Shown here: one piece after another, positions 3,261 through 40,488 of the stretch
Layout of the letters: every line of letters begins with the position of its first letter
Position numbering within the stretch: the first letter of the stretch is position 1
NCBI GenBank assembly: GCA_003141835.1
Contig: PLNR01000002.1
Location: 14,026 to 78,025, forward strand
DNA length: 64,000 nt
Direction: 5' to 3'
Origin: Candidatus Omnitrophota bacterium
GTDB lineage: Bacteria > Omnitrophota > Gorgyraeia > Pluralincolimonadales > Pluralincolimonadaceae
Notes under the pieces: generated by a model
The model's database searches: none
Seen by the model: the letters and a program-made list of their open reading frames with translations, nothing else
What the model was told of the DNA's origin: nothing
Position numbers and translations under genes: made by a program

Positions 3261-3920
3261 TTATTCCTGATTTTTGTTCCCCACTGCAAACCGAGCACCT
3301 ATCTTAAAGGCTTTTTGGCAATCTTTGGAAAATACTTCTTTCCGTCTTTTTAGCTTCGCTTCAGGGTCGAACCGCGTCGCGACATACTTGGAATAGTCGT
3401 CGAACTGGTAGGTGTCAAAGCTCAAGAGCGTCTCGCTTGAACCGAAGATCCTTGTTAGGAAGTTTTCCGTGATCGCGAAACGCTGTTTATAACCTACTTC
3501 GTTCATCACCTTTTCGGTAACGCCCATCGTATAAATGAACCCTGTAGGGATCTTTTTGGGAAAAAGTGACTGCGGGGGATTGGTATACGTCAGGTACGGA
3601 AAGACCAGCCGCTCCATGAATGACTGCATCTCTCCGGTAATGCTTCCCAGGTATATGGGCGAGCCGAAGATAACGGCATCGGACTCCTCGACCCTTTTGA
3701 AGACGGGCTTAAGGACGTCATTAATTACGCATCTGCCGTAGCTTTTCCCGCCCTTTTCTTTGCAGGCAAAACAACTGATGCAGCCCTTATAGTCCAGGTC
3801 GTAGAGATGTATGAGCTCGGTCCCGGCGCCTTTCGATGCCGCGCCCTCAAGCGCCTTCTTAAGCAAGGTCGCCGTGTTCCATTCTTTTCTCGGGCTGCCG
3901 TTAAATGCGATAATTTTCAT
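3261..3920 (-). CDS. flavodoxin-fold NAD(P)H-dependent FMN reductase-like protein with a compact Cys cluster (iron-sulfur flavoprotein-like)
   Basis: MKIIAFNGSPRKEWNT..., a flavodoxin-like N-terminus. Cys motif CISCFACKEKGGKSYGRC. The start is chosen at MKII (index 43 of the track ORF). Confidence 0.6.
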   Translation of the reverse strand: MKIIAFNGSPRKEWNTATLLKKALEGAASKGAGTELIHLYDLDYKGCISCFACKEKGGKSYGRCVINDVLKPVFKRVEESDAVIFGSPIYLGSITGEMQSFMERLVFPYLTYTNPPQSLFPKKIPTGFIYTMGVTEKVMNEVGYKQRFAITENFLTRIFGSSETLLSFDTYQFDDYSKYVATRFDPEAKLKRRKEVFSKDCQKAFKIGARFAVGNKNQE

Positions 3921-3928
3921 AGATATTA

Positions 3929-4144
3929 TTAGTCCCTCCAGAAATACAGCGCCGCGGTGAGGACGATACCGATAAGGTATGTGGCCAGCGATCCCGAGAA
4001 GAAATACGGATACGCCATTAGCGCGATCCCGATAGTCATTGTGCGCCACAGCGTATTCTTTTTGCCGTAAACGAACGCGACAAAACCTATCGCGCCGAAG
4101 ATAGAACAGGCGGCAATTTTGGCGAAATTAAAATCTCCGAACAT
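3929..4144 (-). CDS. small 2-TM membrane protein (hypothetical)
   Basis: 71-aa hydrophobic ORF immediately upstream of the flavoprotein gene on the same strand. Confidence 0.4.
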   Translation of the reverse strand: MFGDFNFAKIAACSIFGAIGFVAFVYGKKNTLWRTMTIGIALMAYPYFFSGSLATYLIGIVLTAALYFWRD

Positions 4145-4257
4145 AGCAATGCCTCTATCTCGTTCTACCTACATAACTTTAGCATCATCCTATAATTATA
4201 ATAGTACACTACTTACAGGATGGCATCTTTTAAGCCTCTAACTAATAGATTGAAAAA

Positions 4258-4968
4258 TTATATTGGCGTCGATACTTTCCAACGGCCATTAAACATTGCT
4301 AACATGCTCTGTCTAACGTCTTCTCCGAGCAACACTATAAAACTTTCTTTATTACCTAAAAAATTTAAACTATTTCCAGATAACCAAAAATGTTTCTCAT
4401 CAATTATATAACGATCATGCAATTCGCTACAATTATATATTTTGATTTCCACATTAAAACCCTCGGAATTAATATGGGCTAACTGTCTTTTAATTATCCC
4501 TGGAGGTTTATTATCGAGTCGCGCTGTAAGTAGTCTAATAGAGGCGGCCTTTTTAAAATTCCTGAAAATAACATCAAGTGTACCTATATCTACGTAAGGA
4601 TCGCATATAGAAACTTCTTTATACTTATCATCCAATATTTCTTTAATATTGTTTTTGGCAGAAAAAGGCTGATTGGCAGTAATAAATTGGATTTTCTTTT
4701 TTTGAATGACCTTTGCCAGTTCGTCTCTCCCCTTCTCCATTAATTTCCAACCGTCCTTATTCTTGTTACACATACCCTTATTTTTTTGAAGGACATAATC
4801 AACGGCCTGACGTGAAGTATCAAAATGAGCTTTTTCTATAAGGAAAGACGCGATTTCGGCAGATGAATATCTATCTTTTTTAGGGGTGGCTAAATACTCA
4901 ATAGCTTTATAAGCCTTCAGAGCTAACTCATCTATTCCATTAATTATACGTACTACATTATCTTCCAT
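4258..4968 (-). CDS. island protein: N-terminal winged-helix-like region + C-terminal domain with degenerate PLD/HKD-like motif (HDRYIIDEKHFWLSGNSLN); putative nuclease-like effector
   Basis: AT-rich coding sequence. The motif HxRxxxD(x6-7)G-N-S-x-N resembles the PLD-family HxKxxxxD...GSxN but is not canonical. There is one copy only, so it would need to dimerise. Confidence 0.5.
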   Translation of the reverse strand: MEDNVVRIINGIDELALKAYKAIEYLATPKKDRYSSAEIASFLIEKAHFDTSRQAVDYVLQKNKGMCNKNKDGWKLMEKGRDELAKVIQKKKIQFITANQPFSAKNNIKEILDDKYKEVSICDPYVDIGTLDVIFRNFKKAASIRLLTARLDNKPPGIIKRQLAHINSEGFNVEIKIYNCSELHDRYIIDEKHFWLSGNSLNFLGNKESFIVLLGEDVRQSMLAMFNGRWKVSTPI

Positions 4969-4998
4969 AGCTCTATTGATACCCCAATGTTCCTCTTA

Positions 4999-5370
4999 TT
5001 ATTTTAAATTGTTAATGACTTCCCGAATCTTTAGATTAGGAATTTCATATTTAACCTTACCTATAAGTAGCCCTCTGTCTCGAAGCTTCTTAAAAAGAGG
5101 ATCTATGGTCCCTTTTTTTATGCGCGTTGCTTCATGAAACTCCTGAGCAGTGATCATTTCATCCTTAATCAGATTTTTAGCCTTAAGGAGTTTTTTTGCT
5201 AATCCATAAACCAATATTTTCTGCTCCGCTGTTAACTTTGTATCCTTAAAATAAATACTATTGTTCGCCTTCTGAATAGTTATATGAGGCCGAAGCGCCT
5301 CAACCACCTCGGATTCACTAAAGGGACCGTTATCAGAGAATAAATCAGTTATCGTTAGTTTTTCAGCCAT
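4999..5370 (-). CDS. island small winged-helix-like protein, paralog 3 of 3
   Basis: Start MAEKLT is preceded by GGAGGAGG. The C-terminal ~85 aa align with the two neighbouring genes (LAKKLL...ITAQEFHEATRIKKGTIDPLFKKLRDRGLL). Confidence 0.6.
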   Translation of the reverse strand: MAEKLTITDLFSDNGPFSESEVVEALRPHITIQKANNSIYFKDTKLTAEQKILVYGLAKKLLKAKNLIKDEMITAQEFHEATRIKKGTIDPLFKKLRDRGLLIGKVKYEIPNLKIREVINNLK

Positions 5371-5473
5371 GACCTCCTCCTTAAATTTATTATTAATTTT
5401 TTCATATATCATTGCACTTAATCAACGCCATCCCATTTGCTATAGCCCTCTAATTAAAGAATTATCTTGCGAG

Positions 5474-5860
5474 CTATTCATTTATTTTTAGTAACTGTAT
5501 TGCTTTAGTTACTGCTTCTAAGGGAATAAAGTATTCTTTGCTATCTTTTAAAACAATATATTCCTTTCCCAGTGTCGTAAGCTGAGAAGCAACGGAAACC
5601 TGTTTTGCTGAAATCATCCTGGCTAATTCTTTATAATCAATAGTTTCTTTTTCTATGAGCCCCAAAATTAGGGAGGCTTTCTTGGCAAGCAAAGAGGCTA
5701 TTATTTTCTTTTTTATGTCTAACTTATTGCCTATTTCCGTCCATTGAATTCGACCTGTTTTTTCCTCAATTTGTAATAAGGGTTGAAGTGTCTTAGTCAA
5801 AAGCTCTTTATTCAAATCTTCTGTTTTTACTAAAAGTTTCTTTAAAGGCTCATTTTCCAT
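5474..5860 (-). CDS. island small winged-helix-like protein, paralog 2 of 3
   Basis: 128 aa. The conserved core LLAKKASLILGLIEKETIDYKELARMISAKQVSVASQLTTLGKEYIVL aligns with paralogs 1 and 3. Confidence 0.6.
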   Translation of the reverse strand: MENEPLKKLLVKTEDLNKELLTKTLQPLLQIEEKTGRIQWTEIGNKLDIKKKIIASLLAKKASLILGLIEKETIDYKELARMISAKQVSVASQLTTLGKEYIVLKDSKEYFIPLEAVTKAIQLLKINE

Positions 5861-5880
5861 TTCGATTTTCCTTTCATTAT

Positions 5881-6288
5881 TTAAATTTTTAATTTTCCTC
5901 TAATTGCTCTCACAAAATCTTGCATTTTCGCCAAACGGACTTTGTAAGAGCCGCGCGTCGTAGACTCTAATAATCCTTCATCTTTTAAAACAGAGGCATA
6001 GGCGGAAATTTTTTTAGCTTCAATTCCTAATCTTTTTTCCAATTCTTTCCAAGATACCTCAGAAGAAACATTCTCGTCAATATGCGCTAATAGAAATTGG
6101 CCTAGGCAATAAAGCGCTATTTGTTCTTTATCTGTTAATCTCGAGGTAAATTCGATTCGCACTTCTCTATTCTCCGGATCTATTTTTAGAACTCCCCGGC
6201 ATAGCTGTATTAGTTCTTTTGTAAGCGCCCCCCCTGTTTCCACTAAAGTAGACTCGATTAAATTCCTAATTTCATCTTTATTATCCAT
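5881..6288 (-). CDS. island small winged-helix-like protein, paralog 1 of 3
   Basis: Start MDNKDE is preceded by AGGGAG. Core LGQFLLAHIDENVSSEVSWKELEKRLGIEAKKISAYASVLKDEGLLE. Confidence 0.6.
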   Translation of the reverse strand: MDNKDEIRNLIESTLVETGGALTKELIQLCRGVLKIDPENREVRIEFTSRLTDKEQIALYCLGQFLLAHIDENVSSEVSWKELEKRLGIEAKKISAYASVLKDEGLLESTTRGSYKVRLAKMQDFVRAIRGKLKI

Positions 6289-6507
6289 TTTCCACTCCCT
6301 TTTAAAATTAACTATACCACATATAATCAATTTGTCAAGAAAATTTTTTAAAACTACTTTCTTCGACTAAGAGTTGTTAAATTGTAAGTTGAAAAAATTT
6401 ATACTAGGGTAACAAAAAATGCCCCTCAGAAATGGTTTAGTGCCGTCTTATTTGACATCCCCTCGTGATTAAAACGGGCTATCACCTTGCAGGATGCATA
6501 GCTATTT

Positions 6508-7104
6508 TTATTTCTTTCTCCTTTTCATAAAAGCATCGAATTTCTTACTCAAAACAAATACATAATCACAAATTGCATTTGTAAAATCCAGGAGATCGCG
6601 AGAGTCTTCTCGGGATATCTTCTCTTCGGTTGCATGCGCTCCTATGTTTCTATGCAATCTTAGGGCATCTGACCACTCAAAGATCTTCTTATCAATAATT
6701 CCTTTTTTAAGTAACTCCTTTAGTCCTCCATGCAGCGCTTTTTCTTTAGTTTTATATTCTGAGCATATACATTCTAACGCCCTGCCGCACATTACAGCAC
6801 AAGCATTATATGCCTTTGATTTATAGCATAGATTTGCTTCTTCTATGGCCGCCTGAACAGGACCAGGGATACTCCAATCTAAGTATTTTTTGGGATCTGG
6901 CCATACTCTAGTTGCATCATCCCACTCCCATTTTTCTGAACTGATCTGAACAAATTCTTGACAACCAATTAAAGAACGTTTACAAGCAGGACATTCTACA
7001 AATGATATTTTATATCGAAACTCATCTTGCGGATCAACTTCTTCGTGCTGAGCTAATATTTTTGCATCTACTTTTGCTTCGCAATAATTGCATTCTATAA
7101 TCAT
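6508..7104 (-). CDS. zinc-ribbon + DUF4145 (HEPN-superfamily-like, Rx4H motif) protein; putative RNase-type toxin/abortive-infection effector
   Basis: N-terminal CNYC...CPAC zinc ribbon. The C-terminal ...ALECICSEY...LRLHRNIGAHATEEK...NAICDYVF matches the DUF4145 pattern with R-N-I-G-A-H (Rx4H). The start MIIECNYC is preceded by GGAGGG, and a TATAAT-like -10 lies upstream. Confidence 0.6.
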   Translation of the reverse strand: MIIECNYCEAKVDAKILAQHEEVDPQDEFRYKISFVECPACKRSLIGCQEFVQISSEKWEWDDATRVWPDPKKYLDWSIPGPVQAAIEEANLCYKSKAYNACAVMCGRALECICSEYKTKEKALHGGLKELLKKGIIDKKIFEWSDALRLHRNIGAHATEEKISREDSRDLLDFTNAICDYVFVLSKKFDAFMKRRKK

Positions 7105-7122
7105 ATTTCCCTCCGTTACATT

Positions 7123-7151
7123 ATTATACTCTTTGTGCACTTATCTGCGAA
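7123..7151 (-). promoter_or_regulatory. candidate sigma70-type promoter for the DUF4145 gene (-35 TTCGCA, 17-nt spacer, -10 TATAAT)
   Basis: The minus-strand sequence TTCGCAgataagtgcacaaagagTATAATaatgtaacGGAGGGaaatATG was read directly. Confidence 0.3.
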
Positions 7152-7344
7152 TCGAGAATACGTTATTCTTCCCCATTTAAAGACAATAAAAAGCCATAAC
7201 TGATTATTTATCAAGTTATGGCTTCATCTGGTGCGTAACCAGTCGTTTTGATGCTTCATTCCTTGTCTAGACGCTCGAAATTAATATAATAATTTCGAGC
7301 AGACAAGGGATGATTCATTACTCCCTAAAATATTGAGGAATTCA

Positions 7345-7423
7345 TGGCGAGCCCGGAGGGATTTGAACCCTCGGTCTTCAGATCGACAATCTGACGTGCT
7401 AGACCAGACTGCACCACGGGCCC
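7345..7423 (-). tRNA. tRNA-Asp (anticodon GUC), CCA encoded
   Basis: The reverse complement folds as a cloverleaf: acceptor GGGCCCG/CGGGCUC (one G-U pair), D-stem GUGC/GCAC, anticodon stem UCAGA/UCUGA with loop UUGUCGA, T-arm GAGGG-UUCAAAU-CCCUC, discriminator G, then CCA. Confidence 0.8.
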
Positions 7424-7438
7424 GCGTATATTTCAGAA

Positions 7439-7515
7439 TGGTGGGCGCTAGAGGACTTGAACCTCTGACCTGTAGAATGTAAATCTACCGCTCTAACCAG
7501 CTGAGCCAAGCGCCC
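7439..7515 (-). tRNA. tRNA-Val (anticodon UAC), CCA encoded
   Basis: The reverse complement folds as acceptor GGGCGCU/AGCGCCC, D-arm GCUC-AGCUGGUUA-GAGC, anticodon stem GUAGA/UCUAC with loop UUUACAU, and T-arm AGAGG-UUCAAGU-CCUCU, then ACCA. Confidence 0.8.
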
Positions 7516-8185
7516 CTATATCCGACCACTTCTTCATGCCTTCGATCCAACCTTTTATCCTGCATTGAAGACGTGTATCGGAAATCACTATCTTAAATGT
7601 TCCTAGCGGCAGTGTATCTCTTTTGTTTTTGCTTGCCCTGCTGACGGCTAGATGCGCTTTATGAAATTGGTCTAAAGGTATGCCGCTGATTTGTGACCAA
7701 AATTTTTCGGCTTTTTCTTTATTTAAGTGCGGATGGATATGAACTCCACCGCGAAATTTAGCATCGTTTACTTTACAGATATCTTTAAAAAATTTCATCA
7801 TCAAGCGCACCATATGCGGGTCTGAATTAGTGAAAATTACCGTATTATTTCCTGCTTTCGACCCTTCTCCCCAATATAGCGCGCTGCCGACCGCTTTTAA
7901 GAGAGTATTCGAACATTCCGATGGGATTTCCTTGGTCGCGGAATTTTTAATATCTTTCCGGATTTTTCCCCACTTTTGCTTGGGGCTATTCGGGTGGTTC
8001 GCCGCAACTGCTCTTCCCTTATCCTGGTTCGATTTAAGCTTAGCTATCTGATCTTCGGTAAGGGGGATATCTTCAATCCACCTGCTGACAGCACCTTTCG
8101 AGCATTTGACGCGTTTCGTTATGGCTCGAAGCGACCAACCTTGCCTGCGAAGCTCTCTTGCAAGCTTTCTTTCTTCTGCTTTCAT
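7493..8185 (-). CDS. HTH-domain protein with LAGLIDADG-like motif (ALYWGEGSK); possible homing-endonuclease-like or DNA-binding protein
   Basis: N-terminal helix-turn-helix (LARELRRQGWSLRAITKRVKCSKGAVSRWI). The motif LLKAVGSALYWGEGSKAGNNTVIFTNSD resembles a LAGLIDADG block. The 3' end overlaps tRNA-Val by 23 nt. Confidence 0.4.
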   Translation of the reverse strand: MKAEERKLARELRRQGWSLRAITKRVKCSKGAVSRWIEDIPLTEDQIAKLKSNQDKGRAVAANHPNSPKQKWGKIRKDIKNSATKEIPSECSNTLLKAVGSALYWGEGSKAGNNTVIFTNSDPHMVRLMMKFFKDICKVNDAKFRGGVHIHPHLNKEKAEKFWSQISGIPLDQFHKAHLAVSRASKNKRDTLPLGTFKIVISDTRLQCRIKGWIEGMKKWSDIGALGSAG

Positions 8186-39949: not shown

Positions 39950-39993
39950 GGCAATAAGAAAAGGGGCATCTCACTTTTCAGTAAGATGCCCCC
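39950..39993 (-). terminator. candidate intrinsic terminator downstream of cspA
   Basis: On the minus strand, GGGGCATCT-(14-nt loop)-AGATGCCCC is followed by TTTTTCTTATT. Confidence 0.5.
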
Positions 39994-40015
39994 AATTCTT
40001 CTGGTTTCTCTAGGA

Positions 40016-40216
40016 TTAGAGCTTTACTACTTTCGTAGCCTGCTCACCCTTGGGACCTTTTTCGATCTCGAACTCGACTTCCTGTCCCTCGGTTAAAGAT
40101 TTATAACCTTCACCCTGGATCGAGCTGTGATGTACGAATACATCCTTGCCGTTCTCAGGAGTAATGAATCCGTAACCTTTCTGGTCGCTGAACCACTTAA
40201 CTTTACCTTTTGCCAT
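40016..40216 (-). CDS. cspA: cold-shock protein (CspA family)
   Basis: [34 protein letters not shown]1/RNP2 motifs. 66 aa. Confidence 0.9.
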
Positions 40217-40338
40217 TATTTACTAACCTCCTTTCCTCTTGGATTATAGTAAATAATGACAGAAAAAACCCGCAAGGCTAGAATTATCATCAACCGTTGC
40301 GGTATAGGATTTCTAATCTTTTATTTACTACGGAGTTA

Positions 40339-40366
40339 AGTATAACATATATCCGCTTCTTGTCAA
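40339..40366 (-). promoter_or_regulatory. candidate cspA promoter (TTGACA-N16-TATACT) with ~115-nt 5'UTR
   Basis: Read on the minus strand. The long 5'UTR with internal stem-loops is typical of csp genes. Confidence 0.35.
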
Positions 40367-40400
40367 GAATTATTTATGGTTGTTACCAGTATTTATACCT

Positions 40401-40430
40401 TTGACATCTTGGCCATGTATTTTGTATAAT
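40401..40430 (+). promoter_or_regulatory. candidate sigma70 promoter of the nuo operon (TTGACA-N18-TATAAT, TG immediately upstream of -10)
   Basis: tttgacatcttggccatgtattttgTATAAT lies ~60 nt upstream of nuoA. It is divergent from the cspA promoter. Confidence 0.5.
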
Positions 40431-40488
40431 CATACAAGCCAACCATTATCATGGCCAGCAAGACAGTCCAGGAGCCTAAGACCAAATT

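Follow-up and report, generated by a model that had tools for sequence, protein, structure and literature searches.

An AT-rich islet beside tRNA-Asp in a Candidatus Omnitrophota genome combines a predicted RAZR family member with a variant of a widespread, undescribed winged-helix/PLD cassette

In a 64,000-nucleotide stretch of DNA from a Candidatus Omnitrophota bacterium (assembly GCA_003141835.1, contig PLNR01000002.1, positions 14,026 to 78,025; the whole stretch is called the window here), we analyzed an AT-rich island of five genes beside tRNA-Asp (4150-7340, Table 1), which has no recognisable mobility genes and is probably a small composite defence islet of two independent modules. First, gene 1 is, to judge from its sequence, a divergent member of the RAZR/PD-T7-4 family. 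Second, genes 2-5 encode three winged-helix proteins and a protein with a winged helix and a phospholipase D (PLD) fold. The PLD gene led us to a three-gene cassette, A-B-PLD, which is widespread, tightly coupled and undescribed, and whose partners A and B are unannotated orphan families; this by-product, a cassette with two orphan partner families, is the more valuable outcome of the analysis. We consider it somewhat probable that genes 2-5 form a DNA-targeting nuclease defence module, for which we infer the nuclease activity, the defence role and the roles of A and B.

The island is clearly set off by its base composition. The GC content of 4150-7340 is 0.347, compared with a mean of 0.529 for the other 3.19-kb windows of the 64-kb sequence (standard deviation 0.017, minimum 0.489), which gives z = -10.8. 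When 400-bp windows were used, the GC content was 0.33-0.40 across ~4000-7400 and 0.45-0.60 in the flanks, and the GC content at third codon positions (GC3) was 0.28-0.34 in the five island genes and 0.62-0.78 in the flanking genes. The AT-rich island that the preliminary description had judged by eye is thus significant by windowed calculation (34.7% vs 52.9% GC), and GC, GC3 and the tRNA coordinates together bear out a compositionally foreign islet on the 3' side of tRNA-Asp. The tRNA pair next to it is a host landmark and marks the right edge, and the AT-rich left edge (4145-4257) adjoins a gene for a 71-amino-acid (aa) membrane protein (3929-4144). As described earlier, the five genes are co-directional; all are minus-strand open reading frames (ORFs), which fill the island, encode products of 198, 135, 128, 123 and 236 aa (genes 1-5) and are called identically on the source record, a 142-kb metagenome contig in ENA. 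Shine-Dalgarno-like sequences precede the starts at 7104, 6288, 5860 and 5370, and a weaker one precedes 4968, in agreement with the ribosome-binding-site-matched starts reported for the three small proteins (6288, 5860 and 5370). The absence of a visible integrase or att repeat was also upheld: a repeat search of 3800-7600, left edge included, found no att-like direct repeat of the tRNA 3' end, and neither the ORFs nor the gene calls of the island or its flanks included a recombinase or integrase. When the two flanking proteins were looked up by exact match, all five contigs retrieved had identical neighbourhoods and came from the same genome population.

The assignment of gene 1 is carried by profile searches and by conserved residues. 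Gene 1 matched the Pfam family DUF4145 (PF13643) with E = 6.4e-20 and 71.5 bits (cutoff 23.1) and gave weak matches to Pfam zinc-ribbon families, so the zinc ribbon, the DUF4145 domain and the Rx4H motif noted before were all recovered. Its CxxC pairs lie at residues 5-8 and 38-41, and the four cysteines (C5, C8, C38 and C41) are invariant in 40 aligned family members. The Rx4H motif is held in the sequence RLHRNIGAH, with R149/H157 as the predicted catalytic pair, and H157 and N153 are nearly invariant in the same 40-member alignment, where they belong to an RNxAAH element. By an exhaustive search, at least 2000 representative clusters (50% identity) of full-length relatives were found, each of ~200-215 aa. 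Over nearly its full length gene 1 matched the PADLOC model of PD-T7-4, weakly at 22-24 bits (E = 6e-6 to 1.5e-5), and it matched phrog_1305 with E = 9e-22; 20 of the 40 family members also matched the PD-T7-4 model, the best with 2e-14. In addition, the family profile matched chain OA of PDB entry 9y9c (E = 0.001) in a colinear alignment (59-165 against 56-162). The family profile was needed for this match, as a single-sequence phmmer search of gene 1 against PDB missed RAZR. Chain OA is a 'DUF4145 domain-containing protein' of 219 aa, of which the entry holds 24 chains, and the published description of the RAZR-Gp77 complex cites chains OA and OM (PMC13017515). In the profile alignment, the family element LRxxRNxAAH is placed on CRIVGNQAVH of RAZR, and R149 and H157 of gene 1 fall on R146 and H154 of RAZR with the same 8-residue spacing.

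RAZR (ring-activated zinc-finger RNase) is the new name of PD-T7-4 from E. coli (Nature 2026, PMC13017515). It is a single-gene abortive-infection system with a Cys4 zinc ribbon at the N-terminus and, at the C-terminus, a DUF4145 domain of divergent HEPN RNase type, whose catalytic residues are R146 and H154; 24 copies assemble round ring-shaped phage proteins (Gp77, portals), become active and cleave single-stranded RNA (PMC13017515). By homology to RAZR, the product of gene 1 would sit in the cell as an inactive oligomer until its zinc-ribbon domains assemble round ring-shaped phage proteins such as portals; it would then be activated and cleave single-stranded RNA, and the infection would be aborted. 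The domain plan and the catalytic residues are present in gene 1, and RAZR-like activation is what analogy would lead us to expect. The zinc-ribbon/DUF4145 plan is very widespread, and with gene 1 the RAZR family would gain a distant member from an uncultured bacterium. The family may be useful for comparing how trigger recognition evolved.

In the second module, gene 5 has 196 full-length homologs with 45-66% identity, and their source names include Parcubacteria/Patescibacteria, Bacteriovorax and Proteobacteria. Its C-terminal domain has a PLD fold, and its motif reads H184-D-R186-Y-x-x-D ... G198-N-S-x-N202 ... E208-S. The residues H, R, N, S, N, E and S round the HKD-like motif are invariant in the alignment, and HDRY is found in 64 of 64 complete homologs. 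Gene 5 departs from the canonical HxK(x)4D(x)6G(S/T)xN at three points: Lys is replaced by Arg, Asp lies at +6, and S-x-N is preceded by an additional residue. The degenerate HKD-like motif seen earlier is accordingly an invariant HxR variant, and it is conserved, not decayed. By sequence, no solved PLD structure was matched by gene 5 even at E <= 10. The PLD domain did match two PDC-S05 models, at 127-297 of 306 (E = 5e-14) and at 153-277 of 285 (3.5e-11), that is, in the C-terminal half only, and three gene 5 relatives likewise match only this half.

Profile comparison shows genes 2, 3 and 4 to be genuine, though distant, paralogs from a single family of small winged-helix proteins, which we name A. 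Their pairwise similarity is weak: BLASTP gave E = 8e-4 for gene 2/gene 4 and 0.008 for gene 3/gene 4, and gene 2/gene 3 was not significant. When they were compared with family A by hhalign, full-length matches were obtained for gene 2 (94%, E = 1e-7), gene 3 (96%, E = 3e-9) and gene 4 (100%), and when the window was translated in six frames, the A-family hidden Markov model (HMM) picked out the ORFs of these three genes and no others (gene 4 7e-54, gene 3 3e-11, gene 2 1e-8; next E = 1.8). The three winged-helix paralogs of the preliminary description are thereby confirmed over their full length. A winged helix-turn-helix (wHTH) fold was found for genes 2-4; for gene 4, the prediction is a MarR/ArsR-like winged helix at the C-terminus, preceded at the N-terminus by a small subdomain of a helix and a beta-hairpin. 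Family A, as represented by gene 4, has 79 homologs with 55-67% identity. None of genes 2, 3 and 4, nor a typical A protein, reached a Pfam, NCBIfam or PADLOC family at cutoff. Gene 2 shows weak AbiEi-type wHTH similarity and has only four homologs in 5.8 billion proteins. Every one of these (L002-L005) has a gene 3 homolog downstream, with 63-84% identity, and the one contig long enough to judge, L002, has no relatives of genes 1, 4 and 5.

The surroundings of this gene 2/gene 3 pair vary among the four loci. At L002 (8001-9712) the two homologs are split by two genes, which encode a 153-aa protein (weak DUF3800) and an 82-aa orphan, and the block has pyrimidine-biosynthesis genes on one side, a BrnA-like antitoxin on the other, and no PLD gene in its vicinity. 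At L005 (2-2847), the gene 2/gene 3 pair directly follows a type II restriction-modification (R-M) pair, which consists of a DNA methyltransferase and an endonuclease of the EcoRII-C type, and the contig ends there. At L003 (786-3182), a 256-aa protein with weak DUF4145 similarity (E = 6e-4) lies 1.6 kb upstream, with no convincing ORF between.

To define the cassette, 90 loci encoding gene 5 relatives were fetched from reference genomes and metagenomes, and their ORFs were searched with the window proteins and the family profiles. The dominant arrangement, present in ~45 loci and 34 distinct versions, consists of A (~127-132 aa), B (~133-144 aa) and the winged-helix (wH) PLD protein, and its coupling is tight: the median A-to-B gap is 4 bp, and the stop of B lies at the start of the PLD gene. 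The hosts belong to many phyla, above all to the candidate phyla radiation, and include Patescibacteria/Parcubacteria, Saccharibacteria, Omnitrophota, Planctomycetales, Gammaproteobacteria and Bacteriovorax. The cassette PLD proteins are 45-66% identical to gene 5 and the cassette A proteins 55-67% identical to gene 4, and gene 4 itself lies directly upstream of gene 5 in the same direction with a gap of 30 bp. B has a conserved C-terminal domain and an N-terminal coiled coil, which is its sole recognisable element; it had no match in Pfam, NCBIfam or PADLOC, and none in PDB beyond the coiled coil. B is unrelated to A, and it was also considered as a relative of gene 2 or gene 3 and rejected (hhalign probability <= 1%). 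No other partner accompanies the PLD protein as constantly as B, on its own or as part of a longer protein (63 ORFs), and in some loci B is present and A is not. Proteins of 236-313 aa encoded directly upstream of the PLD gene can likewise include an A or B domain (L006/L019 288-1130, L021 5230-5940, L089 151-1092, L013 5139-5981), so the partners carry additional domains that vary and lack annotation. A three-gene system with a winged helix and a PLD domain is absent as a described cassette from Pfam, NCBIfam and PADLOC, and a literature search gave only a report on PLD-wH type IV enzymes. VPA1262 was set aside as a gene of a Vibrio GMT island without an assigned function.

Compared with this arrangement, the island is exceptional, as it is the only A-A-A-PLD locus among ~100 loci, which agrees with the earlier remark that a triplicated winged-helix component is unusual. 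One explanation is that genes 2-5 are a decaying or chimeric remnant without joint function, in which an A-B-PLD cassette lost B and an unrelated gene 2/gene 3 pair landed beside it. This would fit the solitary A-A-A-PLD arrangement, the presence of the gene 2/gene 3 pair without a PLD gene in L002, and the absence from the entire window of B, the commonest partner elsewhere. We nevertheless think it very unlikely, since the four ORFs are intact and keep all family-invariant residues, and they have good ribosome-binding sites, short gaps and a single strong promoter. Moreover, there are other B-less variants, in L021 and L089, where longer A-containing proteins lie beside the PLD gene. The closest relative of gene 5 (65% identity; L098-L100, e.g. 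L098 900-2503) lies beside an aroB-like gene and has two partners, an A protein of 141 aa that resembles gene 2 and, after it, a 142-aa coiled-coil orphan. The latter was rejected as an A or B protein, as it has no detectable similarity to either, so a gene-2-like A is combined here with a non-B partner. This pairing indicates partner replacement within the cassette and suggests partner turnover rather than decay. The next closest relative (62%, L101) has the standard A-B-PLD order.

According to the preliminary description, all five genes form one undescribed defence/toxin system, in which a HEPN RNase and a PLD nuclease would act under three winged-helix proteins. Its defence-type gene content is supported, but as a single system the proposal now appears highly improbable. 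The genes are adjacent and co-directional and have a common low GC content, and no terminator is evident between gene 1 and gene 2, where the fold is no better than that of shuffled sequences (z = +0.46). At L003, in addition, there is the weakly DUF4145-like protein upstream of the gene 2/gene 3 pair, but its similarity to gene 1 is marginal (31% identity over 89 residues; gene 1 family profile E = 0.007). Against the proposal, the family of gene 1 is large, and its members are apparently stand-alone proteins of ~200 aa homologous to the named single-gene RAZR. Apart from this marginal L003 match, no ORF in ~95 other loci with relatives of genes 2-5 matched the gene 1 family profile, so the cassette loci elsewhere have no gene 1 relative next to them. 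Genes 2-5 in turn divide into modules that are also found apart from each other, relatives of genes 4 and 5 co-occurring in ~45 loci. Conservation of the five genes in other genomes, on which the proposal depended, was not borne out, as the block was never found as a unit; it therefore resolves into gene 1, a gene 2/gene 3 pair and a gene 4/gene 5 pair. With regard to named systems, HMM searches gave a divided answer: gene 1 appears to fall in PD-T7-4/RAZR, and genes 2-4 fall in no family at cutoff.

The transcription signals also argue for two modules. A near-consensus promoter with an extended -10 element lies in the 219 bp that separate gene 1 from gene 2, 23 nt before the start codon of gene 2. 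Since gene 1 is preceded by a promoter-like site of its own, it apparently does not share a promoter with genes 2-5. In a consensus scan, promoter-like sites in the region were not above chance in number; the gene 1 site rests on its position only, and the separate-promoter argument overall on the quality and position of the sites. An inverted repeat directly upstream of the -35 element of the genes 2-5 promoter (17-nt arms, 82% complementary, 26-nt spacer) is possibly an operator, a candidate binding site for one of the winged-helix proteins.

The neighbourhoods of the cassette in other genomes were examined by scanning 90 non-redundant neighbour ORFs against Pfam and PADLOC, and the results are raw counts without a matched background. 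The commonest neighbours were large serine recombinases (9 ORFs) and DNA methyltransferases or R-M enzymes (N6_N4_Mtase 5, Eco57I 4, ResIII 4, N6_Mtase 3 and C5 methylase 2), among which type I, IIG and III systems were clear. In ~15 loci, a serine recombinase lies within ~5 kb of the cassette. The recombinase gene overlaps the 3' end of the wH-PLD gene by 17 nt in L038 (2016-3584), L044 (1884-3431) and L047 (1923-3461), and starts a few bases from it in L042 (1303-2028), which suggests that in these four loci the cassette is co-transcribed with the integrase of a mobile element. Such a neighbourhood is as expected for a module of defence or inter-element competition on integrative elements. 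The cassette was found neither in GenBank phages nor in IMG/VR contigs, and PLSDB plasmids gave one weak partial match.

The frequent position of the cassette beside serine recombinases of integrative elements also accords with another explanation, in which genes 2-5 form an addiction module of the toxin-antitoxin (TA) type, with the PLD protein as toxin and the small winged-helix proteins as antitoxins or autorepressors, and mainly stabilise their carrier element, with phage defence not their primary role. Small winged-helix genes upstream of a toxic enzyme and tight translational coupling are typical of TA operons, gene 2 has the weak AbiEi-type similarity mentioned above, and published PLD-wH enzymes are toxic in E. 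coli (PMC11037411). On the other hand, TA pairs do not typically have three or four components or a 'toxin' with a DNA-binding domain of its own, no significant homology to a known antitoxin family was found, and R-M genes are the strongest signal in the neighbourhood. We thus regard an addiction module as quite unlikely in itself, and the TA and defence readings of these genes are not mutually exclusive.

If genes 2-5 are a nuclease defence module, as we favour, they would be an operon under their own promoter with gene 5 as the core. The winged-helix DNA-binding domain of gene 5 would direct its single PLD-type phosphodiesterase domain to DNA, and this domain would have to dimerise to build one active site, as in Nuc and BfiI. 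Gene 5 could then act as a nuclease on invading DNA, and the small partners would set its targeting or hold it in check. The window would carry an atypical form of the cassette, from which B is gone and in which three diverged A paralogs are present, two of them as the gene 2/gene 3 pair that is also found elsewhere. Gene 5 is read as a PLD enzyme because its motif residues are invariant and its PLD domain is homologous to the C-terminal half of PDC-S05. The defence reading is based on the serine recombinases and R-M genes in the neighbourhoods and on the type II R-M pair upstream of the gene 2/gene 3 pair in L005.

Several points weigh against this interpretation of the island. The matches of gene 1 to the PD-T7-4 model and to the RAZR chain are weak, the neighbour counts have no matched background, and the mobility of the cassette is deduced from neighbouring recombinases only, because the cassette was not found in the phage, plasmid and viral-contig collections. 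For genes 2-5, the catalytic Lys is replaced by Arg in every gene 5 homolog and the Asp spacing is shifted, so catalysis is not assured. No B was found in the whole window when its six-frame translation was searched with the B profile (best E = 0.14), and the window copy may be impaired or may act in another way. In addition, the best full-length Foldseek matches of gene 5 are TrmBL2 (3e-9) and TrmB, which are non-catalytic DNA-binding proteins with a winged helix and a PLD-like domain. The exchange of Lys for Arg, the overall resemblance to TrmB and the lack of B in the window leave the nuclease reading open to substantial doubt. An alternative is a TrmB/TrmBL2-like role, in which gene 5 is non-catalytic and works as a regulator or chromatin protein that binds DNA, with a PLD-like domain for ligand binding or oligomerisation, and in which genes 2-5, and A-B-PLD generally, are DNA-binding regulators or silencers on mobile elements. 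Taken as a whole, this explanation seems unlikely to us, though by no means negligible. Neither the Pfam TrmB N-terminal family nor Regulator_TrmB was matched by gene 5 at E <= 1, and the resemblance is structural only.

We also put forward, as a tentative possibility, that A-B-wH-PLD is a previously unrecognised and widespread defence system, of which genes 2-5 are a partner-swapped variant, and that its HxR PLD nuclease is targeted or licensed by small winged-helix partners that diversify rapidly. If this is true, it would be a restriction-like mechanism that is independent of methyltransferases and free of NTPases, and especially common in the genome-reduced Patescibacteria (candidate phyla radiation, CPR), and the triplicated A paralogs would represent an expansion of the specificity or sensor component. 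A defence role would make the cassette a compact, ATP-independent nuclease module with modular DNA-reading partners, which would bear on the immunity of reduced-genome bacteria and could be a source of programmable or modification-sensing nucleases. As the window shows, the nuclease-like core can persist while its partner genes are swapped or increase in number.

The remaining features concern the borders of the island and the rest of the window (Table 1). The tRNA pair (7345-7515) scored 71.3 and 67.2 bits in Rfam, and no other Rfam match to a structured RNA was found in the island. The spacer between tRNA-Asp and gene 1 folds at -64.7 kcal/mol, compared with -33.4 for shuffled sequences (z = -7.4), and forms three hairpins: a near-perfect one of 72 nt (7249-7320), a small one (7228-7242) and one at ~7190-7230 with a U-tract after it; this third hairpin probably acts as the intrinsic terminator of the tRNA operon. 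The 72-nt hairpin is unusually large for a terminator role, and a sub-threshold Rfam match to 'mir-2363' was discarded, being merely this long hairpin. Just upstream of the tRNA pair, a 230-aa ORF (7493-8185, minus strand) overlaps tRNA-Val with its last 23 nt; its GC content is 0.444 and its GC3 0.442, and its N-terminal part resembles HTH_23 below cutoff (E = 2e-4). It gave nothing above cutoff in Pfam, nothing in PADLOC or PDB, and weak PHROG matches, and it may be a second, older acquisition or a regulator. The sole other stretch of the window below 42% GC (~39950-40480) is an AT-rich intergenic region of ~570 bp between a NUDIX-like gene and nuoA/nuoB and is probably simply the promoter region of the nuo operon.

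Table 1 Features of the island and its borders, in positions of the window
Feature	Position	Strand	Evidence
tRNA-Val(TAC)	7439-7515	-	ARAGORN and Rfam
tRNA-Asp(GTC)	7345-7423	-	ARAGORN and Rfam
Structured spacer between tRNA-Asp and gene 1	7185-7320 (within 7170-7347)	-	Inverted repeats and RNA fold
Promoter-like site of gene 1	7123-7151	-	TTCGCA-17-TATAAT, 10/12 consensus matches
Gene 1, Cys4 zinc ribbon and DUF4145/HEPN, 198 aa	6508-7104	-	Pfam, PADLOC, PHROG, family profile
Inverted repeat (candidate operator)	6341-6357 / 6384-6400		Directly upstream of the -35 element of genes 2-5
Near-consensus sigma-70 promoter of genes 2-5	6311-6338	-	TTGACA, 16 nt with TG, TATAGT; 11/12
Gene 2, winged-helix protein, distant A paralog, 135 aa	5881-6288	-	hhalign and A-HMM
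Gene 3, winged-helix protein, distant A paralog, 128 aa	5474-5860	-	hhalign and A-HMM
Gene 4, canonical family-A protein, 123 aa	4999-5370	-	Fold prediction, homologs
Gene 5, N-terminal winged helix and C-terminal single PLD-fold domain, 236 aa	4258-4968	-	Homologs, fold
AT-rich non-coding left edge	4145-4257	.	Composition and sequence

Compared with known systems, the two modules show both shared and distinct features. Gene 1 has the same two-domain plan as RAZR (zinc ribbon, linker and DUF4145/HEPN; 198 vs 219 aa), and it may likewise work as a single gene, having its own promoter-like site and no conserved partner in the loci examined. It differs from RAZR in its low sequence similarity, with the PD-T7-4 model matched by no more than half of the family members sampled, and in its host, an uncultured bacterium with ~52% GC. 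For gene 5, the PLD proteins Nuc, NucT, BfiI, NgoAVII, the SauUSI nuclease domain and DrmC of DISARM have HxK(x)4D(x)6GSxN, whereas the gene 5 homologs all have HxR(x)3D...GNSxN. The DNA-binding module of gene 5 is an N-terminal winged helix instead of the B3-like, helicase or SRA-type domain of those PLD nucleases, and, at the level of the cassette, gene 5 is unlike them in being encoded with the small partners A and B. Compared with the archaeal transcription and chromatin proteins TrmB and TrmBL2, gene 5 has no Pfam TrmB or Regulator_TrmB match, its relatives keep the invariant His-x-Arg...N-S-x-N...E set, and they occur in a context of defence and mobile elements, in contrast to the sugar-metabolism context of TrmB. 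TrmB proteins are not known to carry an HKD-type motif. The PLD-like domain of gene 5 and its relatives matches PDC-S05 in its C-terminal half (E = 5e-14 to 4e-14), and a PDC-S05 representative reduced the plating of T7 and T5 by ~1000-fold and protected E. coli against T7, T5 and T4 (preprint 10.1101/2024.09.26.614923). However, the tested protein has an N-terminal region of the RhuM type and is a single-gene candidate, and A and B have no PADLOC match. For the choice of target by gene 5, the nearest published concept is that of Aba4572I and CbaI, PLD-wH type IV restriction enzymes dependent on N6-methyladenine (6mA), in which the winged helix reads 6mA (Front Microbiol 2024, PMC11037411). 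They lie near R-M genes, and their activity has been shown only as Dam-dependent toxicity (PMC11037411). Like gene 5, they carry a PLD nuclease and a winged-helix reader in one chain, but the order is PLD-wH in place of wH-PLD, they are single-chain enzymes without A and B partners, and their reported motif variants, which were compared with gene 5 by description only, are HxDx4K and HxEx4K. Genes 2-5 are thus a new version of a known theme, in which a PLD nuclease is coupled to winged-helix DNA readers.

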